A model generated the notes under the pieces. That model was not told where the DNA came from. It saw only the letters and a program-made list of their open reading frames with translations, and did no database searches. Positions 1,202 through 19,345 of a stretch of 64,000 nucleotides of DNA are shown here, piece after piece. Origin of the DNA: Candidatus Hermodarchaeota archaeon (GTDB taxonomy: Archaea > Asgardarchaeota > Lokiarchaeia > Sigyniarchaeales > SOKP01); NCBI GenBank assembly GCA_048885765.1, contig JBHLLI010000001.1:2592-66591 (forward strand), in the 5' to 3' direction. The stretch's first letter is position 1. Each line of letters starts with the position of its first letter. A program made the translations under genes and the position numbers.

Positions 1202-3136
1202 TTAAAGTGCTAATTTATTTCTCCAAAAGCTAATTTTACTTCTTAATTCTTCCTTTTCAGCATTATTTAACAAATTCATATTACCTTTTAGTGAATTGAT
1301 TGCCATTCTTATTTGTCTTAAAATAGCGCTGAATCCTTTTTTTTCCAGAATATCATCCTGCAATTTTTCTAAAAGCAAAGCTAACTGCTCCCCGGGTAAT
1401 GTGTCGATTTTACTTGAAATATTATTAAATTGGTTTGAAAGATAAGCATTAGTTGATAAATCCATATCTGGTTGGATAACTGGTGTTTGCTTTATTGGCT
1501 CTACCTGAGGTTTTAAAGGTTCCTGAGCAGAGAGGGTTGGTGTTGGTTCAAGCTTAGGAGCTATTGGTTGTGAAACTTTTGGTGTGGGTGGACTAATTGG
1601 TTGTTGATACTGTGGTTGAGGCGTTATTGGTGTAGGTATTCCTTTAATGGCCTGTGTGATTTCTACCTGGTCAAATTTCTTACTTTGTATCCATACATCT
1701 TCTAATACAGCAGCAAATAATTTTACATGTTCCTCTAAAACTGAACCCATTCCCGCTATTTGTAATTCCCCGGTATCTGATTTTGACAGAACACACACTA
1801 CAACCTCTTCGAAATCTTTATTTATTGACCAGAGATTCTCTCTAGGAAAATGTCGTATAGTCAAGTTTGGATATCCTTCTGCTTGTTTAAATCTCATTTG
1901 ATCCTCTGGATTGTTTAGATCAAAATTTGTTGAAATTCTGATATTTATATGCTTTTTTAACCTTGTCAATGCAACTAAATCAACATCTTCCAACTTTGGA
2001 GCAACAATGTGAACTCGCATTTTTACTCGGGTTAACGATTCATTTATTTGAGCCTTGATTCCTTCTATACTTCTTACAAACCAAACATCTTTAAAACTTA
2101 AGAGAGATGCTTCTTTCGAACGTTCCCAAAATTCTTGCATTGTTAGTTCTGAGCTTTCTAATTGGTTTATAATGTTTAGGATGATATCATCTTGTATCGT
2201 TTCAAAGATTTCAGTACGGAATAAATCTTTCAGTTCAGCAATTCCGGTAAGAATATCATCATAGACACCTGTAACTCTTTTTTCTAAATCTTCTAATGTT
2301 GAAACCATTCCACCTTGAATATCAGTAAATACAGTCCCCAAATCAGTACTGATTTCACCAGCAGTATCAGTAATGCTACCTAATTGATTTATAACTTGGT
2401 CTAACATGTTTTGAGTAGTTTGCACGAATTTATCTTTAAATGTTTTAGTTATTTCTGTAAATTGCTCAGCAATTACTTTTGACACAATTTTTTCTGCCAT
2501 GCTGCTCAATGCTCCAACCCTAAATTGCTTTTCGAATCTGGTTGCAATTTCAGATTTTACAGAATCTAAGCGGGACCCCATTGCTTCAAAATCTCTAGTT
2601 ATATCTGCAGGAACAATTTCTTTTAAATTAAGGATAAATCTTCTTACATCTTGAAACCTCTTTACTTGCTCCATTTCTTTTTCAAAACGACCGAATTGTT
2701 CCTTTATTTGCGCGGGTAGTTTTGTTTTCATTATTTGAAGATAAGTCTTATAGTCGTCCAATTTCTTAAGTTTTGTGGATTGTTCTCCCAATGAATCAAA
2801 TTTGGCTTGTATATTTTGGGGTGTGATATTTTGAAACGTTTTTATCATCTCCTTAAACTGATGAATTTGACCCACAAGTGCAGCATAAGGTGGTAGAGCT
2901 TCATAAATTGGCATTTTTCCGGGAATTTGCTTAAGAAGTCCCTTTTCAAATAAGTTATTGGCAATTTGCGCTGCTCTTTCTTCTGTAGTATTATTCAGTA
3001 ATGCTATTTCGCCAACCATTACAGGTCCTCTTCCTGTTATTTTATAATAAGTGTCAACTTCATCGTGCGCTAATCCAATGAGTTCCAAAACATGCTTTGT
3101 TGATGAGTCATCTTCTTTTGACAAGTTAACTATCAT
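1202..3136 (-). CDS. TrmB-like winged-helix protein with long coiled-coil region, TrmB-C/PLD-like region and P/Q-rich linker
   Basis: 644 aa. N-terminus 'HVLELIGLAHDEVDTYYKITGRGPVMVGEIALLNNTTEERAAQIANNLFEKGLL' looks like a TrmB-type wHTH. It is followed by ~250 aa of heptad-like helical sequence and then 'RVKMRVHIVAPKLEDVDLVALTRLKKHINIRIS'. A P/Q-rich stretch 'PTPITPQPQYQQPISPPTPKVSQPIAPKLEPTPT' precedes a helical C-terminus. It is the last gene of a tightly packed operon. Confidence 0.5.
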   Translation of the reverse strand: MIVNLSKEDDSSTKHVLELIGLAHDEVDTYYKITGRGPVMVGEIALLNNTTEERAAQIANNLFEKGLLKQIPGKMPIYEALPPYAALVGQIHQFKEMIKTFQNITPQNIQAKFDSLGEQSTKLKKLDDYKTYLQIMKTKLPAQIKEQFGRFEKEMEQVKRFQDVRRFILNLKEIVPADITRDFEAMGSRLDSVKSEIATRFEKQFRVGALSSMAEKIVSKVIAEQFTEITKTFKDKFVQTTQNMLDQVINQLGSITDTAGEISTDLGTVFTDIQGGMVSTLEDLEKRVTGVYDDILTGIAELKDLFRTEIFETIQDDIILNIINQLESSELTMQEFWERSKEASLLSFKDVWFVRSIEGIKAQINESLTRVKMRVHIVAPKLEDVDLVALTRLKKHINIRISTNFDLNNPEDQMRFKQAEGYPNLTIRHFPRENLWSINKDFEEVVVCVLSKSDTGELQIAGMGSVLEEHVKLFAAVLEDVWIQSKKFDQVEITQAIKGIPTPITPQPQYQQPISPPTPKVSQPIAPKLEPTPTLSAQEPLKPQVEPIKQTPVIQPDMDLSTNAYLSNQFNNISSKIDTLPGEQLALLLEKLQDDILEKKGFSAILRQIRMAINSLKGNMNLLNNAEKEELRSKISFWRNKLAL

Positions 3137-3142
3137 CTCCTT

Positions 3143-4270
3143 TTATTTTTTATATGCGGCTTCAAGAAATTCTAGATGCTTTATTGCTATATTTTTATTT
3201 AATTTACCTTCCATTCTATCTTTACGAATCTTTTCTATTAAATATTCGGGATAAAAAGTATGAACAACGATATCAGTTAATAAAAATACCCATAATGTAT
3301 CTTTACTATCTCTTATGACTTTAAGAATTTGGTCATCTTCCATACCTTTTAGAAAAGTTCCGATTTGGTCTAGGCTTTCTCCAGGCCCTTTTGGAATTTT
3401 ATTTATGGGATATGCTCTCTCTCTAAATAAAGTTATGTAATCATAATTATCGGGATTCATTAATGTACGGGCAATTTTTAAGTTATCCTCAAAATTAGGT
3501 GTATATTTTGAGAAAAATTTAGCAACTTCTTCAAGGTATTTTGAGGCAACTTCAGGGGTTGGTAAGTTTTTCTTAGCGTCTTCAACTAACTTCGATACTG
3601 GTGATCTAAAAATTGTAAAATCAGTAAGAAGAAATAAAGTTATATCCGTATCACCTTCCACCCAATCTTGCATTAATAATCCAGTTTTGATAAAAGGATC
3701 CAAGACATATTCTATATTTGGGATTATTTTCTGCAATTTTTCTTCAATAATCCCTTGTAATTCCCTTCTAGATAACGATCTTTCCTGTAAAGCCTCTAAT
3801 ATTGTTCTTGCTTTTTCACTTGTATAGATTTGTGCTAATCTTTGTTCCTTTGACAAATTTTTTAATCTATCCAAGAGAATTAATGTATTTCTCAAATATA
3901 GCTTTATCGTTTTTACAATTTCATAACTTTGGGCTACATTAGTACTCATTTGTCTTAAATATTTCACTAAATCTTGATTTATTTCTTGTAATACAGCTTC
4001 ACCAAACATTTCTGGATCCTCTCCTAACTCTAACATTAAGTTTATCATTACTGGCATATCAGATTCCATACCTGTAAAAAAACTTGATACATTAGAGCGA
4101 GCTTTTTCTAATCTTACTAAAACGTTTCCAGCCGCACCTGCACCTGTTATGTGGGCATAAAAAATTCGCATCATATCATCTAAATCAATTGCAAGGTCTT
4201 CCGGATAACTAAGCTTTACAACTAGACCTTGATCTTCAGTCCATTCAGTTATAATAAAACCATGGGGCAT
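3143..4270 (-). CDS. soluble longin-like domain + tandem winged-helix-like protein; stand-alone homolog of the cytoplasmic domain of the 2084-aa surface protein
   Basis: 375 aa with no TM segment. By-eye alignment to the C-terminal 440 aa of ORF 53430-59684 gives four matched pairs. 'GFIITEWTEDQGLVVKLSYPEDL' matches 'GILFMKWDEKIGTEILAKYPEAI'. 'NVSSFFTGMESDMPVMINLMLELGEDPEMF' matches 'NILSYYTGAEKGYYLVLLLNLDDDPDFY'. 'LFLLTDFTIFRSP' matches 'IFFINDLFTLRTP'. 'WVFLLTDIVVHTFYPEYLIEKI' matches 'YYALLTDVYVDFIFPKYLLSAV'. The start codon abuts the stop of the upstream gene (4270/4271). Confidence 0.55.
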   Translation of the reverse strand: MPHGFIITEWTEDQGLVVKLSYPEDLAIDLDDMMRIFYAHITGAGAAGNVLVRLEKARSNVSSFFTGMESDMPVMINLMLELGEDPEMFGEAVLQEINQDLVKYLRQMSTNVAQSYEIVKTIKLYLRNTLILLDRLKNLSKEQRLAQIYTSEKARTILEALQERSLSRRELQGIIEEKLQKIIPNIEYVLDPFIKTGLLMQDWVEGDTDITLFLLTDFTIFRSPVSKLVEDAKKNLPTPEVASKYLEEVAKFFSKYTPNFEDNLKIARTLMNPDNYDYITLFRERAYPINKIPKGPGESLDQIGTFLKGMEDDQILKVIRDSKDTLWVFLLTDIVVHTFYPEYLIEKIRKDRMEGKLNKNIAIKHLEFLEAAYKK

Positions 4271-5938
4271 TTATTTTTCTTCCTCTTTTTTTATAATTAA
4301 TTTTTCATTATTTTGATGTTGTAATAATTCTGAACTTAAAATGGTTTTCTGATCTTCAAAATTATTTCTAATAAGTTCCTCCCTTTGATCTACTATAATA
4401 GGTTTCATCGTTTTTGATTTTTTCACTTTTTTCTTTAATTTTCTTATTTTTCTTACAGTAGGAGGATATTTAAAATGACCTTGATATAGACTTATGACTA
4501 TTACAATTCCAATAATAGCTCCTGTTAATGTATAAACCAACCAGCTCAAATCTGGTCCAGGACTCACTGGTTCATCAGGTTCTACAATAATATAAGAAAT
4601 ATCAAGCGATACGTCATCTATTGAAACTGTTATATTTTGATCTAAAATAAAATCATCTGCTAAATAGACTTGAAGTGAAATATTAACATCGTCTGTTATT
4701 AAGTTGGTCACATCGAAACCGCCAATTTTCGCATCTTGAAAGGAAGTGGTGGCAGTACTTAATTTAACAGTTTCTGTGTGTTTGTTATCATTAATCAGGA
4801 TCCTAATTTCTGAATTAGGAGATATTGAAGAATTCCATAAATTATCAATTTTATACTTAAAATTAAGAGTCGCATTTTGTACTAAAACAGGATAAGTGCT
4901 AACATTACTCATCTTCTCACAATCCTGGTTCCATGAAATTGTAGTAAATCTATCAATTTTTTTCTGATAATCGAATGTGAGATTGCAGGATTTAAAAAGC
5001 AAGGAATAGTATGTATCTCGATCTGATTGAGCATAATTATCTTCAACATCAATATCTATCCCTAGAAAGATAGTAAAGTTATGATCATCATAATCTAAGA
5101 CTTTTTCTAAATAATAGGTTAGTACATCTTCGGGTAAAGGAACTAAATATGTATCATATACATAATTTTCGATTCCATCACTAGGGGTGTCATTACTCGC
5201 AGGAAGATCTCCAATTCCTAAATCACGAGGTAAATAACTAGCTGCCAAATATCTATCCTCCTGTTCCATATCAGATAATTGTACATAGAAAGTTACATGA
5301 TCAAATTCTGCTGCTGATGGACTCGCTCCAGTTAAATTATCATTGGGGGTTTCAACATTTGTATTTGCTGTTGCATTGAATAATACTGATAAATCTACTG
5401 CTGAAATTGAATAATCACTCATATTATGCGGCATTTCAATAATTCTTCTCCATAATACACTCGGGCGATTACGTGTTTGATTACCCATGACACCGTATAT
5501 ATTTAGAGTTGAACTTTCCCAATATTCATGTTTTGCTTCACATCCATCTTGGTTAATTTCATAAACATCAGGATAAATTGAGTCTCCTGGTTTTTTTGTA
5601 GGTGTCCAATCTGATGCATTTGGTGGGCCAGATATGTTTGAAAAAGTCCACTCTTCACCAATTATTTTCCAATTTGCTTGACCCTCGCTGATAATTCCAT
5701 TTACATCAGAATTATCACCTTCAGAATCCATATACCAGTATGTTTGGGAAGAAAAATCAGAATTTTTCACCCATTGTTCTTCTCCTGGTACTTCAGCAGC
5801 AAGCTCTAGTGAATTTTCTGCCTTAGTATCTAGAGCCAATCTTGATATATTTATTGAAGTATTACCAAGAATTAATGTGAAAACAAACATAAATAATAAA
5901 ATTGAATAATTGATTTTCTTGTTATTCATCAGTATCAC
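4271..5938 (-). CDS. type I membrane surface protein (paralog A), sequon-rich ectodomain, conserved basic cytoplasmic tail
   Basis: 555 aa. N-terminal hydrophobic anchor/signal 'YSILLFMFVFTLILG' and many N-x-S/T sites. C-terminal 'SPGPDLSWLVYTLTGAIIGIVIVISLYQGHFKYPPTVRKIRKLKKKVKKSK'. Overlaps the upstream paralog by 17 nt. Confidence 0.8.
   Translation of the reverse strand: MILMNNKKINYSILLFMFVFTLILGNTSINISRLALDTKAENSLELAAEVPGEEQWVKNSDFSSQTYWYMDSEGDNSDVNGIISEGQANWKIIGEEWTFSNISGPPNASDWTPTKKPGDSIYPDVYEINQDGCEAKHEYWESSTLNIYGVMGNQTRNRPSVLWRRIIEMPHNMSDYSISAVDLSVLFNATANTNVETPNDNLTGASPSAAEFDHVTFYVQLSDMEQEDRYLAASYLPRDLGIGDLPASNDTPSDGIENYVYDTYLVPLPEDVLTYYLEKVLDYDDHNFTIFLGIDIDVEDNYAQSDRDTYYSLLFKSCNLTFDYQKKIDRFTTISWNQDCEKMSNVSTYPVLVQNATLNFKYKIDNLWNSSISPNSEIRILINDNKHTETVKLSTATTSFQDAKIGGFDVTNLITDDVNISLQVYLADDFILDQNITVSIDDVSLDISYIIVEPDEPVSPGPDLSWLVYTLTGAIIGIVIVISLYQGHFKYPPTVRKIRKLKKKVKKSKTMKPIIVDQREELIRNNFEDQKTILSSELLQHQNNEKLIIKKEEEK
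4571..4996 (-). repeat. near-identical duplicated block, copy 1 (partner 6285-6710, constant offset 1714 nt)
   Basis: Direct reading shows about 10 mismatches over ~415 nt. A stretch of ~240 nt (about 4581-4824) has no mismatch. It encodes the membrane-proximal ectodomain 'FDYQKKIDRFTTISWNQDCEK...SIDDVSLDISYIIVEPDEP'. Confidence 0.9.
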
Positions 5939-7655
5939 CCTTTTTCTGTAATTTGGTATCTATATTTATAAGCTCTTTTTTAGCAATTGTTTCACTAGTA
6001 GTATTTTTGTCTATTTCTTGTGCTTGTTTCATTTGGATCTGTTCAAAACCAAGTATTTCTAGCCTTTCCTGAATATTATTACCAATAATTCCGTTTCTTT
6101 TGTTTACCATTATAGGTTTCAATTTTTTAGATTTTTTTACTTTTTTCTTTAGTTTTCTTATTTTTCTTACCATCGGGGGATATTTGAAGTGTCCTTGATA
6201 TAATCCGAAAACAATAACGATACCACCAATAACAGCAATTAATAAGTAAACAAGCCAACCCAATTCAGGCCCTGGGCTTATTGGTTCATCAGGCTCTACA
6301 ATAATATAAGAAATATCAAGCGATACGTCATCTATTGAAACTGTTATATTTTGATCTAAAATAAAATCATCTGCTAAATAGACTTGAAGTGAAATATTAA
6401 CATCGTCTGTTATTAAGTTGGTCACATCGAAACCGCCAATTTTCGCATCTTGAAAGGAAGTGGTGGCAGTACTTAATTTAACAGTTTCTGTGTGTTTGTT
6501 ATCATTAATCAGGATCCTAATTTCTGAATTAGGAGATAATGAAGAATTCCATAAATTGTCGATTTTATACTTAAAATTAAGAGTTGCATTTTGTACTAAA
6601 ACAGGATAAGTGCTAATATTACTTATCTTCTCACAATCCTGGTTCCATGAAATTGTAGTAAATCTATCAATTTTTTTCTGATAGTCGAATGTAAGATTAC
6701 AGGTTTTAAATAGTAGATAGTACCATGTATCTAATTCCAAATTAGAATAATTATCTTCATTATAAATATCAATACCAAGTGTTACTCTAAAATTTTGATC
6801 ATCATGACTTAATACTCGGCTAAGATAAAAGATTAACTCATCTTCGTCATCGATTTTCATTAAAGTATCGTTTATTTTACTTGCAATTGCTCTACCCCCT
6901 CTCTCATCTCTATTCGCGTATCCACTTCCTAAATCAATAGTCTGATTATATAATACTTCATACATCTCTATTTTGTTTAGGTCTGAAAGATAAACTGAAA
7001 AGCGAACGTGATCATATTCAGCTGCATAACCACTTGTAGGTTCTCCCTGAATGGATTCAAAGGGAGTTTCAATATTTATATCAGCACTTGCATTAAATAT
7101 CGCTGAAAGGTCAGCTGATGTTATCGAATAATCTTCCATATTAACTGGCATTGTTACAATTCTATTCCAATGAACAATTGGGTTGTTTCGACTTTGATTC
7201 CTTGGATAACCATATATATTTAGACCGCCTGATCCTTCCCAATATTCATGAGTAGCATTTAAACCATATGGCGTGAATTCATAAACATCTGGAAGGATAG
7301 AGATTGCTGATTCTTTCCCTGGTGTCCAAGCTGTAGCGCTTGGTACACCAGTTATATTTGAAAAGGACTGATGTTCTCCAATAATTACGAAATTTCCTTG
7401 TTCTCCACTAATAATTCCATCAACGTCAGTAAGATCTCCCTCAGATTCCATATACCAGTATGCTTGGGAACTAAAATCAGTATTTTTTACCCATTGTCCT
7501 TCTCCCGGGATTTCACCAGCAACCTGGACTCCATTTAGTTGAGCAAAATTAATAATTGTGTACAAATTAAATGGAAGATTTAAAAAAATAATAGTTAAAA
7601 CAAAAACACCTAGTAAAAGATGTTTTTTTTTTCTTTCCATCATCATATCTCTCAA
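5922..7655 (-). CDS. type I membrane surface protein (paralog B), sequon-rich ectodomain, conserved basic cytoplasmic tail
   Basis: 577 aa with signal/anchor 'HLLLGVFVLTIIFLNL'. The N-terminal half resembles paralog A only moderately by eye, while the C-terminal ectodomain is nearly identical. TM plus tail is 'LYQGHFKYPPMVRKIRKLKKKVKKSKK'. Confidence 0.8.
   Translation of the reverse strand: MRDMMMERKKKHLLLGVFVLTIIFLNLPFNLYTIINFAQLNGVQVAGEIPGEGQWVKNTDFSSQAYWYMESEGDLTDVDGIISGEQGNFVIIGEHQSFSNITGVPSATAWTPGKESAISILPDVYEFTPYGLNATHEYWEGSGGLNIYGYPRNQSRNNPIVHWNRIVTMPVNMEDYSITSADLSAIFNASADINIETPFESIQGEPTSGYAAEYDHVRFSVYLSDLNKIEMYEVLYNQTIDLGSGYANRDERGGRAIASKINDTLMKIDDEDELIFYLSRVLSHDDQNFRVTLGIDIYNEDNYSNLELDTWYYLLFKTCNLTFDYQKKIDRFTTISWNQDCEKISNISTYPVLVQNATLNFKYKIDNLWNSSLSPNSEIRILINDNKHTETVKLSTATTSFQDAKIGGFDVTNLITDDVNISLQVYLADDFILDQNITVSIDDVSLDISYIIVEPDEPISPGPELGWLVYLLIAVIGGIVIVFGLYQGHFKYPPMVRKIRKLKKKVKKSKKLKPIMVNKRNGIIGNNIQERLEILGFEQIQMKQAQEIDKNTTSETIAKKELINIDTKLQKKGDTDE
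6285..6710 (-). repeat. near-identical duplicated block, copy 2 (partner 4571-4996)
   Basis: Same evidence as copy 1. Confidence 0.9.
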
Positions 7656-7741
7656 TATTTCAATAAGTCTTTATTTTTATAACTAAACTTCACTAGAAAT
7701 TTAGTAAATTTATAATAAATGAATAAGTTATTTGTCGAATT

Positions 7742-7775
7742 TAGGATAATAATAGAAATATAGTGTATAAAAATC
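7742..7775 (-). promoter_or_regulatory. conserved 34-bp upstream element (copy 1), contains a TATA-like box
   Basis: 'TAGGATAATAATAGAAATATAGTGTATAAAAATC' lies 86 nt upstream of the 577-aa gene start. It matches 29 of 34 positions of 11745-11778, upstream of the 1241-aa gene. In gene orientation it begins 'GATTTTTATACAC'. Confidence 0.5.
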
Positions 7776-7943
7776 TTTTTTTAGTCGTTGAAAATAATTC
7801 TCATTTATGAATTATATAAAAATCAAAAATATTAGCATATTATATTTATAGAGTTTTCAAACTTAAAATGGAGTTATAACAAAACCCCCATAAATGATAT
7901 TACCAATTATAGAAAGATAGTGTAAAAAAAATTTTTTTTAAAT

Positions 7944-10900
7944 TTATTCCTCTTTAAATAATAATTTGTCATCTTGTTTGACTTTTTCGGATTCAAATGA
8001 TTCTAGATTTAAGATATCAATATTATTTTGGACGGTATTTTTAATCAGTTCGTCTCGATTAGTCACTGAGATGGGTTTTGTCTTTTTCGTTTTTCGAACT
8101 TTTTTCTTTAGCTTTCTTATTTTTCTCACCATTGGAGGATATTTAAAATGTGTCTGATAGAGTGTGAAAATCAGTGCAAGTCCAATAATTCCACCAATTA
8201 ATATATATATAAGCCAACTCAAATCAGGTCCAGGACTTACCTCAGGTCTGGTCACGATTAAAGTTATATCCTTACTTGTATAAATATAATCATCTCCCGC
8301 ATCAGCATATAAAGTTATAGGATAGGAACCTTCTGGAACATTTTCCAAAAGATACTCATAAGTACCGTTATTATAAGTATCAATAAGTACGTCTTGACCA
8401 TATGCCCATTTGTATGTAACAATCGCATTTTTAATAGTGCCTCCAAAGTATGTATCAAGTAAAGTTGCTCTTAATATTACATCATCTCCAGGTATAGCCT
8501 CTATTTGAGACGATATATTAATTAACGTAGGTATTTTATTAATAGTAAGTATTAATAATTTTTCTTGAATCTCGTAATTCGTAGCAATTGCTGTAATTGA
8601 TATCCTATTAGAAATTGAAATTTCCAATCCCATTGAATGTACTAATTCCATTGTATCTAATTCAATACTATGTTGTTCTAAAGCATCATCTCTAGTTAAA
8701 TTAATTGACAGTTCATTTAGAGTTACATATGCATAAGGGATATAAGCACCAATCTCATTTGTATACTTCACTGTTATATTTAATATTTCTCCTATTGTAA
8801 GATTAAAAATAGCGGGACTTGTCTTAATAGCACCATTTAATAAAAGTTGAAAGTTTGTTGGCTTTTCGGTTACTTGAACGTAAAAGCTAATTGATTGAGG
8901 ATTATAATTATCTTTACGTGCAAACACTGTAAATGGTGTGATTCCTTGCTCTAAAGACTCTTCTCCTATAATGATAGTATACTGATTGTTTGTCTCATTT
9001 AGAAAGTCAATGCTTAATAATTCAACTGTTGCATTAGGAAGATGATTTCCATGAGAACTATCTCGATATTCAACAGTTATATTTATATCTTCGCCAAGGT
9101 CTATTTGGATTGTATCGCTAAAATTCGTTAGCTGTTGATTCACATACAATTCTAAATAACTTCCTAATTCAGTTATTTGGATCCTAATTAAAGCAAATTG
9201 TGCTTCATATTTATATGGATTAATAGATATTATTAAAGTCTGGAGAGTAAGTGAACTGTAAGCAGAAGTATTACATTCTAACTCGTATTGCCCGATAATA
9301 GGTTGAATTAGATGATATTCACCATTCCAGGATACATTAACATCATCAAAAGCATCTATCCCAAATCCACTATTCTTTTCAGTATAGTTAAATTTCACCG
9401 TAAAATTGTCATTCCATGCAACAGAAACAATATCAAGCCCATTTTCTACAGTAAGAACTGTTTGCTTTACTACTTCAACAGTAATATTTACTTCTTTATT
9501 CAAGTAAAATTCATGATCAGCATAAATTGTAACAGTATTATTGCCCGCACTAGCTTTACTCGCATTGAATTCATATAAGTAATAACCTGGACTTATTTCA
9601 CTTAAAATTTCAGGTGCCCCTGTGAAATCAGTATATACATCTGCATTTTCTATAGCTCTATTGTCTATTAAATCGTTATATGAGACTTTTATGTTTATAA
9701 TTCGATCATCAAAAACATTTTCAATGAAATCTATACCTTGATCTGGTACAAGCTTAGAATCATGGATTACTGTAAAGTTTTTATAAATAACTCCTGTTTC
9801 ATTTAAATCAAAAGAAGTATATGAATTATTCCAAGTAATAATTACTTCATATTCTCCCGCTTTATAATTAGGAACATTATTAGGTATCATAAATGGGTCA
9901 AAATAAACTATACCATTATCGTTAACTTGTTTAATTTGATTTTCTCCGGTCCATATAGTGCCATCCGGAAATCTTATATACAGGTTTGCCATAGTATTTC
10001 CGATATAACTAGATATATCAAGTTCGGGGCTCTCTATTTTTCCTGTTATATTGATATAATCTCCACTTATGAATGCATTATTAGGTACCCAAGGTCCAGT
10101 AGGAGTAGGACTGTTATAGATATTTAACTCTGAACAATAATTAGGTGATACTGCTGTTAACTTCCAAAATCCATTTGTATTACTTGTTATGGAACTTACT
10201 GGAATATTTACAATCTTCTTATTTGCATTCTCTGTTATTTTGGTTTGAGAAAGAGAATTAGGATTTTGAGAGAAGAATATTCCTGTTAAATTAACATCCA
10301 GAGGATATTCAACTGTCATATTTGTTTCCTCGTATCCTGCAGGAATTTCCATATGGGCATAAGTTGTCCAATCCACATTACTATTATTGGATACACTAAA
10401 AGCAGATCCTTGATAACTAAGATCTGGATCAGCTGTATAATAAGTTTCAGGACTAGATTTATATGTAAACAAATTCAAATTTGCATCAAGTTCTATCTTA
10501 TAACTTATCCAATTTCCTTCATCTTTAAAAGTCAAAAGCCAATTCAGATCACTACTAAAATTAGCTATTACTGATGATTGGATACTTCCATTCCAATTAC
10601 CTAAAATACCAAGATTACCTTCACCATAATTAACATTATCATTCACATCTTCACCATTTAATTGCAATTCCAGTTGACTTGGTTTTGCTTTCGATTTTAC
10701 AATTAACGAAACATTATCAAAAAGAGTAGAATAATCTGCATAACCTGAAGCAGTTCCGCTGACTCTTTTAAATTCTATGGTAATATTCATATTTTTAACT
10801 CCTTCAGGAAATATTTGATCATCATTACCATCTAAGTAAATAGGATATGGATTATACCATTGACCATTAGAATTGCCACATGCGTCTAGCATAGACTGAA

Positions 10901-11669
10901 GACCATTACCCCATATAAGTTTATCATTTACTAATACTTGCAATACCATATGATTATTGAAATTATCACCATGTTTTGGATAAACCGCAAAAGATAACCA
11001 AGCATTATCTACATCCCCTCTATCAATTTCAAAAGTGGTTTCCCACCAGCACTTATCACCAACATCATAACGACCAGATCCATCCCCATCAATGGCTAAT
11101 TCCAAGCAATCCTCTCCTCCATCAGTTAAAGGTTGACTACCATCAAAATAATTTCCACTCATAGCATTAATATATCCTTGTATATCCTGTGTTCTAAATG
11201 TCCAATTAGTAAGATATGCACTATCATCATCTCCAAATGGAGACCCTCCAAAAGAACCAGCATGAAATGTTCCATTAATCCAGTTACGTGTATCGTATAA
11301 ATTAGTTACCATAGAATTTAGTTGGTACCCATTCCATCCGTATAATTCTACTTTTGCGTGAGTATCATCATAAGAATTATTGTTAAAACTAACTGCTAAA
11401 TTTGATTTTGTGTAATTAGCATAATGAGTTACATTCCAAGGAGCTCCTGTACCAGTGAATAAATTTCCTGCTGATAATTCTGAAGTTGCTAAATTTTCAG
11501 CAAAAAAAGATTCCTCTTTATTATTATCATTTTGATGAAAATTCGGATTTATATTAAGATTACTGAAAAAAGGAATCATTAAGAGACTAATGAAAAAAAC
11601 TGATAAAACATAAATCTTTTTTTTGTTAATTTTGTTTGAGTTCAAAATCCAACCTCTTTTTATTTTCAA
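7944..11669 (-). CDS. large surface protein with jelly-roll/CBM-like N-domain, repeated Ig-like beta-sandwich modules, one TM and the conserved basic tail
   Basis: 1241 aa. TTG start with 'AGGT' 4 nt upstream and anchor 'IYVLSVFFISLLMIPFF'. There are dozens of N-x-S/T sequons and recurring modules such as 'NITVEYRDSSHGNHLPNATVELL', 'NITVKYTNEIGAYIPYAYVTL' and 'NIKVSYNDLIDNRAIENADVY'. C-terminus is 'SPGPDLSWLIYILIGGIIGLALIFTLYQTHFKYPPMVRKIRKLKKKVRKTKK'. Confidence 0.8.
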   Translation of the reverse strand: MKIKRGWILNSNKINKKKIYVLSVFFISLLMIPFFSNLNINPNFHQNDNNKEESFFAENLATSELSAGNLFTGTGAPWNVTHYANYTKSNLAVSFNNNSYDDTHAKVELYGWNGYQLNSMVTNLYDTRNWINGTFHAGSFGGSPFGDDDSAYLTNWTFRTQDIQGYINAMSGNYFDGSQPLTDGGEDCLELAIDGDGSGRYDVGDKCWWETTFEIDRGDVDNAWLSFAVYPKHGDNFNNHMVLQVLVNDKLIWGNGLQSMLDACGNSNGQWYNPYPIYLDGNDDQIFPEGVKNMNITIEFKRVSGTASGYADYSTLFDNVSLIVKSKAKPSQLELQLNGEDVNDNVNYGEGNLGILGNWNGSIQSSVIANFSSDLNWLLTFKDEGNWISYKIELDANLNLFTYKSSPETYYTADPDLSYQGSAFSVSNNSNVDWTTYAHMEIPAGYEETNMTVEYPLDVNLTGIFFSQNPNSLSQTKITENANKKIVNIPVSSITSNTNGFWKLTAVSPNYCSELNIYNSPTPTGPWVPNNAFISGDYINITGKIESPELDISSYIGNTMANLYIRFPDGTIWTGENQIKQVNDNGIVYFDPFMIPNNVPNYKAGEYEVIITWNNSYTSFDLNETGVIYKNFTVIHDSKLVPDQGIDFIENVFDDRIINIKVSYNDLIDNRAIENADVYTDFTGAPEILSEISPGYYLYEFNASKASAGNNTVTIYADHEFYLNKEVNITVEVVKQTVLTVENGLDIVSVAWNDNFTVKFNYTEKNSGFGIDAFDDVNVSWNGEYHLIQPIIGQYELECNTSAYSSLTLQTLIISINPYKYEAQFALIRIQITELGSYLELYVNQQLTNFSDTIQIDLGEDINITVEYRDSSHGNHLPNATVELLSIDFLNETNNQYTIIIGEESLEQGITPFTVFARKDNYNPQSISFYVQVTEKPTNFQLLLNGAIKTSPAIFNLTIGEILNITVKYTNEIGAYIPYAYVTLNELSINLTRDDALEQHSIELDTMELVHSMGLEISISNRISITAIATNYEIQEKLLILTINKIPTLINISSQIEAIPGDDVILRATLLDTYFGGTIKNAIVTYKWAYGQDVLIDTYNNGTYEYLLENVPEGSYPITLYADAGDDYIYTSKDITLIVTRPEVSPGPDLSWLIYILIGGIIGLALIFTLYQTHFKYPPMVRKIRKLKKKVRKTKKTKPISVTNRDELIKNTVQNNIDILNLESFESEKVKQDDKLLFKEE

Positions 11670-13105: not shown

Positions 13106-13582
13106 TTGTATAAAAGGTGTTTGAGTATTAGTATTGACACAAAAAGTTTCGATAATATTCTCAGCAAGATTATAAAGAGTGAAAGCGGCATTAAAAAAGT
13201 AATTTTGGTTGATAGAACAGGATTAACTATTGCAAGTGTCTCGAAATTCTCCTACTTTCCAGCTGATGTAGATGGGATTGGTGCGATTGCTAGCGCTGTA
13301 TTCTGTGCATCAGAGGAACAAGGGAAGAACCTGGAGCTTGGCAATCTGGAAATAGTGACCAGCGAGTTCTCGGGTGGAAAGATTTTCGCATCTTCTTGTG
13401 GGCCTAAAGGTGTTTTAACCCTAATCTCAGATCCGGAGATAAATATTGGTTTAATTAGACTTATTTTGAAACGATCTGGAGATGAATTAAAAGAAATACT
13501 AGATGAATTCTTATCTGAAACAGTCGAAGTTATGGATAGTGGCTTAGATTTATCAGATCTTGACTCACTTACACCTGATTAA
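13106..13582 (+). CDS. Roadblock/LC7 (MglB-like) domain protein with acidic C-terminal tail
   Basis: 158 aa. 'IKKVILVDRTGLTIASVS...DVDGIGAIASAVFCASEEQGKNLELGNLEIVTSEFSGGKIFASSCGPKGVLTLISD' is a typical Roadblock alpha-beta-beta-alpha-beta-beta pattern. The start codon is uncertain (TTG at 13106 in the ORF track). Confidence 0.8.
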   Translation: MYKRCLSISIDTKSFDNILSKIIKSESGIKKVILVDRTGLTIASVSKFSYFPADVDGIGAIASAVFCASEEQGKNLELGNLEIVTSEFSGGKIFASSCGPKGVLTLISDPEINIGLIRLILKRSGDELKEILDEFLSETVEVMDSGLDLSDLDSLTPD

Positions 13583-13698: not shown

Positions 13699-15177
13699 TT
13701 AGGTTTTAGATTTTCTTTTTTTAAGGAAATAAATACCAACAATTCCTCCTAGAGCCGCTCCTTCGAGAATAACAAAGACCAGCAACACTATACTTAAGGT
13801 CACAGTATCAATTTCTGGCACTCCCGCAGTACAAATATTATTTTCAAAAATGTTTCCTGAACTTCCGCCGGTTTCATTGTAGCATACCAAATTTCCTAAC
13901 AAAATATTGTTAACTATGATATTAATATCGCTATTTTCTAAATAAGTACCATTTCTGTTATTATTAGCTGTATTAGATACAATCGAATTTGAATTACTGT
14001 CTAATAAGTGGATTCCATTCATTTCATTATTATTTGCTGTATTTCCTATTAGCCCCGCATTATTGCTTGAATCTAATAGAATTCCATGCTCTTTGTTATT
14101 ATTTGCTAAATTATTGATCAGAAGATTATTGTGGCTATTAAAATCTAAATGAATACCACTTAAGTTATTGTATTGAATAGTATTGGTTCCTAATATATTC
14201 CTTTGACTGGCATATAACCTTATTCCGTCTAAACCATTATGATGAATATTGTTATTTTCAATCTCACAATCATCTGGGCTATTCAGAAATATTCCATTAT
14301 CACTATTCTCATAAACAGTGTTTTGAAGACAGTAAAGAAAATTACCACCATCAAGGAGAATTCCATGTAATACATTACTGAAAATAATATTATTTTGAAT
14401 CAATACTTCATCACATGCATCCGTCATGATTCCATTCTGACCATTAAAGCTAGCGGTATTTCCTATAACATTATTATCATCACTATTAGAATTCAAGGAA
14501 ATCCCATTTATATTTTCATTTTGGTTTGCTAAATTATTCGAAATTGTATTAAACGTACTCTGAGTGAGAAATATACCATGGTTAGAATTATCAGAAGCAT
14601 TATTATTTGAGATGATGTTATGATGGGAATTAGATAAGCGCAATCCTTCATTATTTTGATACATATGATTACCACTTAATTCTGTATCATTCACAAATGA
14701 TAATTCAATACCTCTTAGACAATTATATGCATTACAATTGATAACATCCCCGTTAGTTATATTATTAAGATACAATCCTGCTTCTAATGAATCTGAATTT
14801 CTAAAAGTACATGTTCTAATCACAAAATACTCTCTTGAATTGAGAATTCTCAAACAATCATCAAACATCGCACCATTATCAAAAATATGATCTTGAATTA
14901 AATATGGACTTGAAGGTGTTCCTAACCCTGTACAAATTCCAATATCCTTTGCCCAGGTCCAATTGCCAGAATTGGTAGTATTAGTAGTAGCTAGCGCATC
15001 AATTTCAATATTAACAAATGTAGCAGCCATTTTAGGTAATAATATATCAAAATTGTCCTCGCTTTTAACCGTACCAGTTAATAATTGGAGATTAAAACCA
15101 ACTGAAAAACCTAAAATTGAACAAATTAAGATAATTGTTAGTAAAGTCGTATTTTTTTGGTTTTTTCTATTATACAT
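13699..15177 (-). CDS. right-handed parallel beta-helix (PbH1/NosD-like) surface protein with C-terminal membrane anchor
   Basis: 492 aa with an N-terminal anchor. It has more than 12 tandem ~22-aa repeats of the type 'N.I..N.....NGI.L..S..N.I..N'. The C-terminal TM is 'LSIVLLVFVILEGAALGGIVGIYFLKKRKSKT'. Confidence 0.75.
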   Translation of the reverse strand: MYNRKNQKNTTLLTIILICSILGFSVGFNLQLLTGTVKSEDNFDILLPKMAATFVNIEIDALATTNTTNSGNWTWAKDIGICTGLGTPSSPYLIQDHIFDNGAMFDDCLRILNSREYFVIRTCTFRNSDSLEAGLYLNNITNGDVINCNAYNCLRGIELSFVNDTELSGNHMYQNNEGLRLSNSHHNIISNNNASDNSNHGIFLTQSTFNTISNNLANQNENINGISLNSNSDDNNVIGNTASFNGQNGIMTDACDEVLIQNNIIFSNVLHGILLDGGNFLYCLQNTVYENSDNGIFLNSPDDCEIENNNIHHNGLDGIRLYASQRNILGTNTIQYNNLSGIHLDFNSHNNLLINNLANNNKEHGILLDSSNNAGLIGNTANNNEMNGIHLLDSNSNSIVSNTANNNRNGTYLENSDINIIVNNILLGNLVCYNETGGSSGNIFENNICTAGVPEIDTVTLSIVLLVFVILEGAALGGIVGIYFLKKRKSKT

Positions 15178-15313
15178 TTTTAGAACCTTTTTTTAGATAG
15201 AGTATGTAATTGAACGTGGATAAGATATAAAAAGGATTTAGGAATGATTCTTCCCATTTATCAGAAAATGCTCTGAATTTAAAACCAGAAAAAAATAAAA
15301 AAAAAAAGTGGGA

Positions 15314-17098
15314 TTAAGATTTTCTTTTTCTGATAAAATAAGTAGCAATAATTACTCCGATAACAGCACTTTCTACAATAACAATAATAAGGAGAACTAA
15401 GCTCATATCTATCGTAAAACCTGCCGCAGCAGCGCATATATTATTTTCAAAAATATTTCCAGTACTTCCTGTTTCATTAAAGCATGCACCATTACCAATA
15501 AATACATTATTAGCGACGATATTATTGTTACTCGTATCCAAAAATGTTCCATTCATATTGCCATTTGCTGTATTAGAAGTGATACTGTTTACGTCGCTAC
15601 CCAATAGATGAATTCCATTCATTCCATTATTACTAGCTGTATTACCGGTAATTGTATTGCTATCACTAGTTTCTAATAGGATTCCATGGAAAACATTATT
15701 AGTTGCAAAGTTATTTACTAGTAAATTTAAATCACATCCTGAAGCTAATACAATCCCACTCCAGTTATTATACCTTGCAGTGTTGGATTTTATTGTATTC
15801 CAAAGACTACCAGCTGTTAATCTTATTCCATCATATCCATTATGATGAGCGTAGTTACTTTCGATAATACAATTTGAAATATCCTCTAAATATATTCCAT
15901 ATAGCAAATTCTCATAGACAGTGTTCTTAGTGCATGTAATATTATCAGTATTGAAAAGATAAATTCCAAATACTGAATTATTATATGCTATACTATTATG
16001 AATAAGTGAATCTATACATCCAGTAAGGTATATACCCGCAACCAAATTATGATTCATGGTATTTTGGATATATTCATTATTAGAAGTACCTGGACCATCA
16101 CCGAAAATTCCAAACACATTATTAGTATTTACTGTATTTTTTGAAATTACATTATATTGACTTCCACTCAATAAGTAAATTCCACTAACATCATTGTCAT
16201 TAGCAGTATTGGATAACAGTGTATTTCTATCACTATCACCTAATTGGATACCACTTACAGCATTATCATTAGCTTCATTATAAGAAATATCACAATCACT
16301 ACAACTATCGATACTAATCCCACTATCACCATTACGATTTACCGTATTATGTAATATATTATTATTATTACTTAGCAAAACAAGCCAGATTCCGGGATAA
16401 TTTTGATTATCATTAAGTAGATTATATGAAATAGTGTTATGAGTACTTAGGGATACATATATCCCTATATCTATATTTGCTGAAATATTGTTGCTATAAA
16501 TAGTGTTATGATGGGAGTTATCAAGAGTCACCCCTGCAGTTGTGTCGTAAATATGGCTATCCCTTATCTCAGTATTATTTACATTATCCATCTCAATTCC
16601 TATATAATTATCATAAGAATTACAATTAATGATTCTTCCATTAGTAACATTGTACAAATAAAGACCATCATCCATGAAACCAGCGCTCATAAAAGTGCAA
16701 TCTTGAATGATAAAATAATCTCTTGAATTAAAGATCCTTAAACAATCATCCATTGCATAAGCATTATCAAAAGTATGACCTTGTATTCTGTAAGGACTAC
16801 CAGGGGTGCCAAATCCAGTACATAACCCAATACTTTTTGCCCATGTCCAATTACCATTTGTTGAAGTGTTTGTAGTCAATAGGGCATCAATTGTAATATC
16901 ACCAAAAATAGCGGCAGTTTTCAATGAATCAGCACCATAATCCGAATTAACTTCAGTAATTTGTCCAGAAGTATAGAGACTGGTACTGAGAGAGACCGCC
17001 ATGATAGAGCTTGTTAACAAAATTGCCACTAAAACTGTTTGTTTTAGGTTTTTTCTGTTTGACATTAAATTTACCCTTTTATAAAAGATTGTATGCAT
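15314..17098 (-). CDS. right-handed parallel beta-helix (PbH1/NosD-like) surface protein, paralog
   Basis: It shares 'GNWTWAK.IG.CTG.GTP.SPY.IQ.H.FDN' and the same repeat type and C-terminal anchor with 13699-15177. The likely true start is M12 'MSNRKNLKQ' (17065), which parallels 'MYNRKNQKN' of the paralog. Confidence 0.75.
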   Translation of the reverse strand: MHTIFYKRVNLMSNRKNLKQTVLVAILLTSSIMAVSLSTSLYTSGQITEVNSDYGADSLKTAAIFGDITIDALLTTNTSTNGNWTWAKSIGLCTGFGTPGSPYRIQGHTFDNAYAMDDCLRIFNSRDYFIIQDCTFMSAGFMDDGLYLYNVTNGRIINCNSYDNYIGIEMDNVNNTEIRDSHIYDTTAGVTLDNSHHNTIYSNNISANIDIGIYVSLSTHNTISYNLLNDNQNYPGIWLVLLSNNNNILHNTVNRNGDSGISIDSCSDCDISYNEANDNAVSGIQLGDSDRNTLLSNTANDNDVSGIYLLSGSQYNVISKNTVNTNNVFGIFGDGPGTSNNEYIQNTMNHNLVAGIYLTGCIDSLIHNSIAYNNSVFGIYLFNTDNITCTKNTVYENLLYGIYLEDISNCIIESNYAHHNGYDGIRLTAGSLWNTIKSNTARYNNWSGIVLASGCDLNLLVNNFATNNVFHGILLETSDSNTITGNTASNNGMNGIHLLGSDVNSITSNTANGNMNGTFLDTSNNNIVANNVFIGNGACFNETGSTGNIFENNICAAAAGFTIDMSLVLLIIVIVESAVIGVIIATYFIRKRKS

Positions 17099-17240: not shown

Positions 17241-18188
17241 ATGTCATTTGATTTTGTAAAAAAATTGGATTTTGAATCAGAATATTTTGATCTGTATAAA
17301 CTTTCCCAAAGTGCGTATGGCGCCATTGGTAAAGAAAACTCTGGAATGGGGGGAAATGCTGGCTTTATAGATATAGAGGATTACTTGATAATTGTTGATA
17401 CTACTGGGAGTGTAGATGCTGCTAAAGATTTAAAAAAAGCCGCTATCCAATTTACTGAAAAACAGCCTAATTTTATAGTTATTACTCATTATCATATGGA
17501 TCATCTTATGGGGACTTCTTTATTTGATAGAACAATTCAGATTATGACTTCAGATCGTACTCTTAAAAATATTCAAACAGAAGGCAAAAAAAGGATCGAA
17601 GAATTTAAGAATATGAATCTTGCTGAAATGGAAGAATCGCTTAAAAATGAAACGGACAAAGTGAAAAAAAAAGAGATTGAAAATGATCTCATCTTTCTTA
17701 AAACAGTTCGTTCCGATAACTTCGCTCTCCGAGAACCTAATCTTACTTTTAAGGAAGGATGCGTTATATATGGGAAAGGCGAGTCAGTCCATTTACGAAC
17801 CTTTAAAAAAGCTCATACTGATGGAGATGTAATAGTATATATTCCGGAAGAAAAAGTATTATTTGCTGGAGATCTTTTGTTTGCACGAGTGGATCCATGG
17901 TTAGGCTCTGGAAACCCTGAAGGATGGATTGCTGTAAATGAAGAAATAATGACATTTGATTTTAATGTTGTAGTTCCTGGACATGGCAAATTAGCTTCTA
18001 AGGAGCAATTTTCCCTTGAAAATAAATATATTAAAGAAATTCTTGATTTAGTTAAGAAAAAAATTGATGCGGGAGAAGATCCAACCCAAATAAAGCGAGA
18101 GGATTTTTCAGAGGAGTTACAATCCTTTGAAAGTCCCATTTTAGAATGGAATCTTAACTTTCTTGCTGAAATTTTAAAGAAATCCTAA
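17241..18188 (+). CDS. MBL-fold metallo-hydrolase (paralog 1 of 3)
   Basis: 315 aa. 'THYHMDHLMG' (HxHxDH), a later 'AHTDGD' and 'PGHG'. Confidence 0.8.
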   Translation: MSFDFVKKLDFESEYFDLYKLSQSAYGAIGKENSGMGGNAGFIDIEDYLIIVDTTGSVDAAKDLKKAAIQFTEKQPNFIVITHYHMDHLMGTSLFDRTIQIMTSDRTLKNIQTEGKKRIEEFKNMNLAEMEESLKNETDKVKKKEIENDLIFLKTVRSDNFALREPNLTFKEGCVIYGKGESVHLRTFKKAHTDGDVIVYIPEEKVLFAGDLLFARVDPWLGSGNPEGWIAVNEEIMTFDFNVVVPGHGKLASKEQFSLENKYIKEILDLVKKKIDAGEDPTQIKREDFSEELQSFESPILEWNLNFLAEILKKS

Positions 18189-18403
18189 CTTTAATTATTT
18201 TCATTGAACTTTTTAACTAAATTTGTTGTTTCAATATGAATGCACTTTAGAGTTTTAAATATTATAACTATTGAAAGAAATCCTTCGTATAGTTCATTCA
18301 TACGGTATAGTTCAGCTCAAGTTCATGAGATTAATCTATAAATAAATACTAATCTTTAACTCAATTATCTACTCCATTTTAATAAAAATAACTGAAAAAT
18401 ATT

Positions 18404-19246
18404 ATGGATTATAAAAAGACTGACTTCGAATCGGTATATTTTGATCTTTTTGAATTGACAGAAGGAATTTATGCGGCTATCTCTATAAATGATTCTGATG
18501 CTAAGACAAGTGCAGGAATCTTTGATTTAGGGAACTTTTTGATCATTTTTGATACATTATTTTATCCTGGGGCTGCAGTTGATTTATATAAAGCAGGAAA
18601 AGAATTGTGTGATAAAGAACCATCATTTATCGTTAATAGCCATTTTCATGGGGATCATGTATTTGGTAACTGCCTTTTTCCGGATAATGTTCCTATAATA
18701 AGTACTTCTCCTACTGTAAAAAAGATACAAGAAGTTGTTTTTGACCAACTCAAACGCTCTCAAGATATTGCCGAAGAGGAAATTCAAAGACGCAAGGAAA
18801 TGCTAAACTCAGATGATGCTCCATGGGGTAAGCAGGAATCATTAAATGATATTGAATTCAGTAAGATGGTAACAGAGCCAGATTTTAAAATTAAATTACC
18901 AAATTTCTTGATTAATGATAATATTACGATCAATGGTACAAAAAAAACTCTTCATTTAATCGCCTATGGTATTGGCCATACAGAATCTGATATTATAGCT
19001 TATTTTCCAGATGAAAAAATCTGTTTTATGGGGGATCTATTATTTGCTAATTTGGATGATAGTTGGGCTCCAAATGATACTGGAAGATTTAATGCGGCTG
19101 ATCCTTTAAAATTATTCGAGATTTTAAAGAATATATTAGAAATGGATATAGATATATATGTAGCAGGCCATGGAGGAGTATCAACTAAAGATGCCGTACA
19201 AATGAATATGAATTTCATAAAAAAATATTTTATTGACAAACTATAA
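18404..19246 (+). CDS. MBL-fold metallo-hydrolase (paralog 2 of 3, more diverged)
   Basis: 280 aa. 'SHFHGDHVFG', 'GHTESD' and 'AGHG'. Its N-terminus 'FESVYFDLFELTEGIYAAI' is shared with the neighbours. Confidence 0.8.
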   Translation: MDYKKTDFESVYFDLFELTEGIYAAISINDSDAKTSAGIFDLGNFLIIFDTLFYPGAAVDLYKAGKELCDKEPSFIVNSHFHGDHVFGNCLFPDNVPIISTSPTVKKIQEVVFDQLKRSQDIAEEEIQRRKEMLNSDDAPWGKQESLNDIEFSKMVTEPDFKIKLPNFLINDNITINGTKKTLHLIAYGIGHTESDIIAYFPDEKICFMGDLLFANLDDSWAPNDTGRFNAADPLKLFEILKNILEMDIDIYVAGHGGVSTKDAVQMNMNFIKKYFIDKL

Positions 19247-19345
19247 GATAACAATCAATTTCAAAATATCATGTTAAATCTCAATTTTAAATATTAAACT
19301 CATATAATCGATAAAATTTATCAAAACTAAAAAAAAAAAAAAATT

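Follow-up and report, generated by a model that had tools for sequence, protein, structure and literature searches.

A conserved gene cassette of Asgard archaea that probably couples variable surface proteins to a cytoplasmic longin/winged-helix adaptor

In a 64,000-nucleotide (nt) stretch of the genome of a Candidatus Hermodarchaeota archaeon (contig JBHLLI010000001.1; this whole stretch is hereafter called the window), five minus-strand genes encode three single-pass surface proteins of 1241, 577 and 555 amino acids (aa), a cytoplasmic protein of 375 aa and a TrmB-like protein of 644 aa. Our results make it probable that these genes represent a conserved cassette by which the 375-aa protein, a longin/winged-helix adaptor in the cytoplasm, is coupled to variable surface proteins with a single membrane pass. 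To judge from the sequences collected here, the cassette appears to be confined to Asgard archaea, mostly Lokiarchaeia. An earlier note on this DNA had proposed that a tail motif shared by the three surface proteins has a common cytoplasmic binding partner, most obviously the 375-aa protein, and this interpretation is supported in all of its computationally testable parts. The features of the cassette are as follows (TM, transmembrane; box, the conserved juxtamembrane motif of the tails; module, the longin/winged-helix protein or its equivalent):

7944-11669, minus strand: type I surface protein, 1241 aa; signal-like segment at the N-terminus, ectodomain of 1145 aa (32 NxS/T sequons), TM helix and box tail
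8103-8144, minus strand: juxtamembrane box of the 1241-aa protein, KYPPMVRKIRKLKK
5922-7655, minus strand: type I surface protein, 577 aa, with a box tail; opens a tight four-gene operon
6144-6185, minus strand: juxtamembrane box of the 577-aa protein
4271-5938, minus strand: type I surface protein, 555 aa, with a box tail; tandem paralogue of the 577-aa protein
4430-4471, minus strand: juxtamembrane box of the 555-aa protein, KYPPTVRKIRKLKK
4268-4273, minus strand: TAAATG junction of the 555-aa stop and the 375-aa start, with a GAGGA motif 13 nt upstream
3143-4270, minus strand: module, 375 aa, cytoplasmic, with a longin domain and two winged helices
1202-3136, minus strand: TrmB/TrmBL2-like protein, 644 aa; the start is possibly TTG at 3124

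The G+C content of the window is ~30%, and the closest relatives of its proteins are proteins from Promethearchaeota (Lokiarchaeia) metagenome-assembled genomes (MAGs). All five genes are on the minus strand, at the positions that the earlier note gave, and the tight packing that it described was also found: a 17-nt overlap at 5922-5938, a stop and a start abutting at 4271/4270, and a 6-nt gap at 3137-3142, which contains AAGGAG ahead of the 644-aa gene. The abutment of the 555-aa stop and the 375-aa start reads ...GAGGAAGAAAAATAAATG, and its TAAATG has the look of a translational-coupling signature, which is common to 34 related loci. The spacer after the 1241-aa gene is 288 nt long and AT-rich and begins with an oligo-T run; thus, this gene is probably transcribed separately from the four-gene operon, which fits the earlier reference to four downstream genes. 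Four of the five proteins had no curated family match in Pfam or NCBIfam.

The 1241-, 577- and 555-aa proteins have signal-like N-termini, 2.8-3.7 NxS/T sequons per 100 residues and one C-terminal hydrophobic helix each, followed by HFKYPP[MT]VRKIRKLKKKV[KR]K. A six-frame scan of the window with the strict motif KYPP.VRK[IV]RK gave exactly three matches (4439-4471, 6153-6185 and 8112-8144), all within the ranges noticed previously, and each is preceded by SPGP[DE]L[SG]W and the hydrophobic helix. The number of cytoplasmic residues that follow ...KPI is 41, 62 and 41, rather than the 50-90 stated before. The ectodomain N-termini had been described as very different in all three proteins, which holds for the 1241-aa ectodomain, unrelated to the other two, but not for the 555- and 577-aa proteins, which are close paralogues with 63% identity over their full length. 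A 360-nt tract of these two genes (4605-4964 and ~6320-6680) shows 96-100% nucleotide identity, compared with 48-79% in its flanks. This looks like gene conversion in the membrane-proximal ectodomain only, with the tail not covered.

For comparison, we collected 79 loci from species-representative genomes, retrieved via the 375-aa subfamily (52-93% identity), and 80 metagenome loci, retrieved via the module of a 2084-aa protein of the same window (54-84% identity), and scanned profile hidden Markov models (HMMs) of the box and the module over 1591 open reading frames (ORFs) in 1.88 Mb (the 159 loci and the window). It should be noted that narrower alignments were used for retrieval and that the loci are biased toward these two subfamilies, hereafter the 375-type and the 2084-type. 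The 2084-aa protein is a fused paralogous system:

53430-59684, plus strand: 2084-aa protein with a giant ectodomain, a TM helix, a type-2 box, a ~70-aa linker and a module
58356-58394, plus strand: type-2 box of the 2084-aa protein, AKIPTFVKKVRDMKK, after the TM helix
58587-59681, plus strand: longin/winged-helix module of the 2084-aa protein

An alignment over the whole 375-aa protein covers residues 1723-2077 of the 2084-aa protein (25% identity, E = 1e-25), which confirms that a homologous module sits in cis behind a related tail. Among 188 box-positive ORFs, 17 were fused to the module, 132 had a module gene no more than 100 nt downstream, and the remaining 39 belonged to tandem arrays of box genes, at a greater distance upstream of the module that closes the array. 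Thus, the expected co-occurrence of tail and module is upheld, all 188 box proteins having a same-strand module fused or downstream. Viewed from the other side, 149 of the 158 modules that could be judged had a box protein fused or within 100 nt, and in 78 of these 149 the gap was -1 or 0 nt. T1 boxes occurred with M1 modules only (105 of 105) and T2 boxes with M2 modules only (67 of 67); the window holds one T1/M1 and one T2/M2 system. A cassette contains one to three surface proteins of ~500 to 1700 aa, and the whole cassette is duplicated in some loci (for example, L045, L046 and L136). Two kinds of unusual arrangement were also observed. In four related loci (L096, L108, L109 and L117), a standalone module follows a 210-aa methyltransferase-like gene with no box gene, and these are unexplained exceptions. 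In a Helarchaeota-labelled MAG (L080, 6669-9983), two tandem 555-type proteins are joined in one 1104-aa ORF with two boxes, and the cassette has the homologue of the 644-aa protein on its upstream rather than its downstream side.

Surface-protein and module genes of the 375-type meet at TAAATG (34 loci) and those of the 2084-type at TAATG (36 loci), the stop is nearly always TAA, and Shine-Dalgarno (SD)-like GGAGG/GGTGA motifs lie within the final codons of the gene upstream of the module. These sequence features together indicate coupling by termination-reinitiation, not readthrough. Readthrough at the in-frame TAAATG was rejected as the main reading, given the nearly constant TAA and the TAATG overlap of the 2084-type, which is out of frame. 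Split surface proteins of the 2084-type end with '...RIPTFVKKxRxMKKxIKGxKSISESLLYPSKEEYIVKKLGDKWExLGLSLEEILG...EGGxx', and the same ~70-aa end segment forms the linker between TM helix and module in the fused ones; fused and split forms of this subfamily thus interconvert by fusion/fission of the Rosetta-stone kind. In the split proteins (L086-L160), the conserved C-terminal '...EGGxx' coincides with the SD-like GGAGG/GGTGA for the module, and conservation of this peptide may instead be that of an RNA signal.

The box has the consensus [YI]-P-x-x-V-[RK]-K-[IV]-R-x-[LM]-[KR]-K and is followed by a short, less conserved segment. The claim that the tail is conserved more strongly than the ectodomain could be extended to 91 complete proteins of this type, in which the median pairwise identity falls from the box outward (28-aa box, 0.64; TM helix, 0.42; distal tail, 0.23; ectodomain, 0.18). 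A comparison of the boxes of the three paralogues in the window shows 8-11 synonymous-only codon differences versus 4-7 amino-acid changes. With so many synonymous differences, the box is selected as a protein motif without recent DNA copying, and recent gene conversion as the source of the tail identity was ruled out, the near-identical tract lying in the ectodomain. The possibility that the tail is a generic topology signal did not hold either, because the box is missing from 290 further ORFs with TM segments in these 1.88 Mb; the two anchored beta-helix surface proteins of the window, which served as negative controls, have plain, short, basic ends (...KKRKSKT and ...RKRKS). A PGF-CTERM/archaeosortase signal was likewise ruled out: a P-G motif is present ahead of the TM helix, but 66-87 residues, or a linker plus a ~365-aa module, follow that helix, and the NCBIfam sorting-signal models had no match in box proteins. 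A protein-database search with the 99-aa tail returned only seven short fragments and was uninformative, and Pfam and NCBIfam searches with the ectodomains gave nothing except a weak DUF2341 match in the 2084-aa protein.

The 375-aa protein itself had no Pfam, NCBIfam or PDB sequence match. Its AlphaFold model, based on a 16-sequence alignment (mean predicted local distance difference test score (pLDDT) 81, predicted template-modelling score (pTM) 0.74), comprises a longin domain (residues 1-138), a winged helix (141-223), a helical linker, a second winged helix (~285-340) and C-terminal helices. Residues 1-138 form the beta-beta-alpha-beta-beta-beta core of longins (E4-11, E15-22, H30-43, E48-54, E59-65 and E74-80, then helices) and can be superimposed on solved longins; Foldseek matched them to the Kluyveromyces lactis Lst4 longin (4zy8; probability 1.0, TM-score 0.58-0.65), to a Lokiarchaeal longin (8yqg; probability 0.91-0.93) and also to DENND1A and FLCN. 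The assignment of this protein as longin-like/winged-helix is therefore borne out by both the model and the structure search. The best full-length matches in the PDB were NPRL2/Npr2 chains of GATOR1/SEA (8fw5, 9v0j, 9o5a/d, 7t3a/b and 8adl_S, their identity confirmed by sequence), with E = 6.6e-4 to 0.09 and a TM-score of only 0.2-0.25. Sequence homology to NPRL2 was ruled out: hhalign gave the family profile a probability of 0.18% against human NPRL2, Pfam NPR2 matched none of 66 family members, and a PDB profile search did not return NPRL2. Longins of the GTPase-activating protein (GAP) type (NPRL2, FLCN and SMCR8/C9orf72) carry a GP motif before strand 2 and an arginine finger (PMC12290439). 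This signature was also ruled out: G15, ahead of strand 2, is conserved, but it is followed by L, T, A or V instead of P, and no longin arginine is near-invariant over 66 diverse members, in which P23, H40 and S63 are the conserved positions. On the basis of the model, the 375-aa protein may thus be NPRL2-like, but in architecture only.

With regard to its other domains, the family profile matches the ArsR-like regulator PH1932 (E = 4e-4), and some members match HTH_20, HTH_5, TFIIE_alpha or TrmB, so that the winged helices appear to resemble the ArsR, HTH_20 and TrmB types. The longin domain is acidic (family median charge -7, isoelectric point (pI) 4.5) and the box strongly basic (+13); the winged helices have family median charges of -0.5 and -1, and the pI of the whole module is 5.2. 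Database homologues of the 375-aa protein number 397, the best 120 of them being at least 70% identical, and an exhaustive profile search with the family yielded 406 clusters at 50% identity. In two Helarchaeota proteins (P0175 and P0206), the longin/winged-helix module is fused N-terminally to SIR2_2 and tetratricopeptide repeat (TPR) domains, which suggests that the module also serves outside membrane cassettes.

The 644-aa protein contains a winged helix-turn-helix (wHTH) domain (residues 12-80), a coiled coil of ~260 residues (83-348), an alpha/beta region (351-498), a Pro-rich disordered linker (499-560) and a well-predicted helical bundle (562-641). Its model has low confidence (pLDDT 61, pTM 0.29) and is usable only for the wHTH, the coiled coil and the C-terminal bundle. 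The window protein itself scored 20.7 bits against PF01978, under the cut-off of 25.6, and PF01978 is recorded for most of the 120 homologues among the matches listed. The family profile matched TrmB (3qph, E = 3.6e-4), and the best Foldseek match of the model was TrmBL2 (5bpd, alignments of up to 494 columns, probability 0.99), although the alpha/beta region behind the comparison with the TrmBL2 effector domain has a pLDDT of only 36-66. These three lines of evidence agree with the earlier description of a TrmB-like coiled-coil protein. A homologue follows the module in 68 of the 79 loci of the 375-type subfamily and is also present in three distant subfamilies.

Beyond Lokiarchaeia, the module family could be identified in Odinarchaeum yellowstonii, Sigynarchaeota, Helarchaeota and an 'Asgardarchaeia' MAG. 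In four distant contexts, the identity between the module and the 375-aa protein is 22-31%:

L161 (Odinarchaeum): the cluster includes a 1552-aa surface protein whose TM helix is followed by '...KKPIQVKKI...'; a Roadblock gene (15176-15817) lies two genes further on
L162: no surface protein found; Arf/Ras GTPase; homologue (921 aa) of the 644-aa protein
L163 ('Asgardarchaeia' MAG), 1639-10440: 1780-aa surface protein with '...FSIPPLVRKI...', a 311-aa small GTPase, the module and a convergent TrmB-like protein
L164: surface protein of 1890 aa, divergent, with '...LKYPKPVRKIHKFKK...'; GTPase; full-length homologue (735 aa) of the 644-aa protein

Diverged boxes are thus present in three of these four contexts (L161, L163 and L164), and domain HMMs of the 644-aa protein match the partners in L162, L163 and L164 with E-values of 1e-7 to 1e-51. 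In L163, the small GTPase gene sits between the surface-protein gene and the module gene, and the N-terminus of the TrmB-like protein is extended by a part of longin-like appearance, while the coiled coil is missing.

Two GTPases flank the 2084-aa gene in the window, and a Roadblock protein lies near the 375-type cassette:

51110-52930, minus strand: tandem GTPase, 606 aa, Arf-like plus Roadblock plus Ras-like, divergent from the 2084-aa gene
62717-63697, minus strand: Ras-like GTPase, 326 aa, with an N-terminal extension, downstream of the 2084-aa gene
13106-13582, plus strand: Roadblock/LC7 (MAPKK1_Int-like) protein, whose position two genes upstream of the cassette is kept in the 375-type subfamily

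Small-GTPase-like genes account for 2.7% of the genes in the loci and adjoin 19 of the 95 2084-type modules, and ~25 of 80 related loci have a GTPase related to those in the window, oriented convergently to the module. The tandem GTPase could be a client or partner of the 2084-aa system. The Roadblock/LC7 protein is 90-100% identical across loci whose modules are 55-93% identical, and it is a possible accessory of the cassette.

In the explanation that we favour, and hold to be somewhat better than an even bet, the surface proteins, which consist of a signal peptide, an ectodomain rich in sequons, a single TM helix and a cytoplasmic tail, vary in their ectodomains and keep the polybasic juxtamembrane box invariant. 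The adaptor would be translated from the next cistron by termination-reinitiation at TAAATG/TAATG, and its synthesis would therefore accompany that of the surface protein at the membrane; paralogous systems, of which the 2084-aa protein is one, have it fused outright. We infer that the box, possibly together with the short segment that follows it, docks directly on the adaptor, the likeliest site being the acidic longin domain, which by its charge is a plausible partner of the basic box. The TrmB-like wHTH/coiled-coil protein is a third component in most subfamilies, and small GTPases or Roadblock proteins, which are frequent neighbours, would be candidate clients of the longin domain. Such a complex would relay ectodomain events inward, or position and sort the surface proteins. 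A further proposal, in which the tail box recruits the adaptor and the adaptor engages Arf/Ras-like GTPases or Roadblock dimers together with the coiled-coil TrmB-like scaffold, can be offered as a tentative one. If this receptor-to-longin-to-small-GTPase pathway were real, it would be a prokaryotic forerunner of the eukaryotic longin adaptors that read the cytosolic tails of membrane proteins, and Asgard cells would couple surface contacts to their internal organization.

Several observations weigh against direct coupling or against parts of this scheme. Nine modules have no neighbouring box gene, and the finding that none of the 188 box ORFs lacks a module is no unbiased genome-wide census, because it was by way of the module that the loci had been found. 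None of the 80 loci of the 2084-type subfamily contains a homologue of the 644-aa protein, and no GTPase was found next to the module across the loci of the 375-type. The enrichment of GTPases and the association with Roadblock proteins are no more than suggestive, since many of the loci share descent. The tail identity is 0.54 within a locus versus 0.50 between loci, which gives no clear signal of locus-specific co-evolution. Finally, the box is kept even in covalent fusions and may therefore have another role than recruitment of the module, for example binding of lipid or of a third partner. The last two points are also in line with a reading in which there is no direct contact, the box being a lipid-binding polybasic stop-transfer sequence or anchor and the downstream genes being co-expressed or acting elsewhere: polybasic juxtamembrane stretches obey the positive-inside rule and bind anionic lipids, and recruitment of the module would be needless in a fused protein. 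However, the non-basic box positions (Y/I-P-x-x-V) are as well conserved as the basic ones, other anchored surface proteins of the same genome end in a plain KKRK, and repeated fusion/fission together with exclusive T1-M1 and T2-M2 pairing is hard to explain without a functional tie, which makes this reading very improbable.

It could also be supposed that the system is a membrane-tethered or sequestered transcription regulator, like ToxR/CadC or like Mlc, which is sequestered by PtsG; the winged helices of the module would bind DNA, the surface protein would be the sensor and its tail would keep the regulator at the membrane, permanently so in the fused form, and the TrmB-like protein would be a co-regulator. 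The kinship of these winged helices to prokaryotic DNA-binding types, as well as a conserved partner with a TrmB wHTH and the chromatin protein TrmBL2 as its best match, would suit such a role. Nevertheless, the winged-helix domains are near neutral rather than basic in an acidic module, the longin domain would be left without a role, and one dedicated regulator per surface cassette, in up to three copies per locus, would be unusual. Winged helices can also be protein-protein modules, as in NPRL2 and ESCRT-II, and we consider the regulator reading rather doubtful. Alternatively, the box could be a sorting or retention signal and the longin/winged-helix protein a cargo adaptor or chaperone without signalling, so that large glycoproteins are delivered, clustered or stabilized, for example on protrusions and perhaps with a small GTPase. 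Longin-fold subunits belong to eukaryotic cargo adaptors and to the signal recognition particle (SRP) receptor, which would be in keeping with this idea. Translational coupling would yield synthesis at the membrane in step with the surface protein, a single module serves one to three surface proteins per cassette, and GTPases adjoin it in several subfamilies; moreover, cryo-tomography of a cultured Lokiarchaeon revealed many complex surface proteins and no ordered surface layer (S-layer) (PMC9834061). Such a biogenesis or sorting factor is nonetheless unlikely: cultured Asgard archaea have few internal membranes or none (as cited in PMC12290439), the neighbourhood contains no coat or large adaptor subunits, and a permanent fusion to cargo, as in the 2084-aa protein, is not expected of a recycling adaptor.

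Other genes of the window are mentioned here for completeness. The two beta-helix controls (13699-15177 and 15314-17098, minus strand) are NosD-like right-handed beta-helix surface-protein paralogues with a signal peptide and a plain C-terminal anchor. Three metallo-beta-lactamase-fold paralogues (315, 280 and 315 aa) lie in tandem at 17241-20293 (plus strand), and an IS605 OrfB/TnpB-like gene with a Cas12f1-like TNB domain is present at 38578-39786 (minus strand). The 341-aa protein at 20319-21344 (minus strand) has an SMC-like coiled coil, and its synteny is kept in 19 loci. In two of its orthologues, both of 348 aa, the N-terminus matches positions 3-117 of the module profile, that is, the longin part; thus, this protein may be a second longin relative near the cassette.

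Cultured Lokiarchaea have no ordered S-layer and display numerous unidentified 'complex surface proteins', for which a role in the cell-cell contacts relevant to eukaryogenesis has been proposed (PMC9834061). Through the cassette, the cytoplasmic tails of such proteins are genetically tied to a eukaryote-like longin adaptor, a tie that follows from the evidence for fusion/fission and translational coupling and recurs in several Asgard classes. It points to an undescribed link between surface and cytoplasm in the closest archaeal relatives of eukaryotes, and by it Asgard longin proteins would gain a concrete candidate membrane partner. The resulting hypothesis is also concrete, involving one short peptide and one soluble 375-aa protein, and could show what an Asgard longin binds and by what means the surface of these cells is connected to the cytoplasm.

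A limited full-text literature search returned no account of a link between a longin and TM surface proteins, of a conserved tail box or of a TrmB-like partner, in agreement with the earlier note, whose author knew of no described archaeal system of this architecture. GAP-like longins of Asgard archaea have been discussed (PMC12290439), and 'NPRL2-like longin' families are catalogued in Asgard genomes (Liu et al., bioRxiv 10.1101/2020.10.19.343400, available in part) and listed for L. ossiferum (PMC9834061). As far as the available part of that catalogue goes, its families resemble our module in combining an NPRL2-like longin with varied C-terminal parts, but they include fusions to two-component domains, and no TM surface link, tail box or TrmB-like partner is described there. 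The 375-aa family may already be within one of the catalogued 'NPRL2-like longin' asCOGs.

Among systems of known function, NPRL2/Npr2 of GATOR1/SEACIT is similar in size (~375-380 aa) and, to judge from the model, in the order of an N-terminal longin and winged helices, and it provides the best full-length structural matches. The 375-aa protein differs from it in lacking detectable sequence similarity, the conserved arginine, the GP motif and DEPDC5/NPRL3 partners, in the archaeal ArsR/TrmB look of its winged helices and in being coupled to surface-protein tails. The membrane longins of eukaryotes (small and medium subunits of AP/COPI, SRX of SRalpha with SRbeta, and the GEF-GAP longins of DENN/FLCN/Lst4) may be compared by analogy, as they place a longin at a membrane with short cytosolic determinants or small GTPases. 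In the cassette, by contrast, the box is juxtamembrane, not C-terminal, the catalytic signatures are absent, and any coat or GTPase partner is hypothetical. TrmB and TrmBL2 probably share with the 644-aa protein the N-terminal TrmB-type wHTH, and TrmBL2 matches it structurally over the wHTH and later parts; the ~260-residue coiled-coil insertion, the Pro-rich linker, the extra C-terminal bundle and the tie to a membrane cassette set the 644-aa protein apart. ToxR/CadC and Mlc-PtsG are comparable in that a winged-helix protein is held by, or is part of, a TM sensor. The cassette does not belong to the ToxR/CadC type, since its order is reversed (signal peptide, ectodomain, TM helix, cytoplasmic module) and its winged helices are of the ArsR, HTH_20 and TrmB types, not OmpR; in addition, a longin domain is present, and DNA binding is only hypothetical. 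Because the cassette thus belongs neither with NPRL2 nor with the GAP longins, PGF-CTERM sorting or the ToxR-type regulators, we regard it as a new kind of system whose building blocks are known folds.

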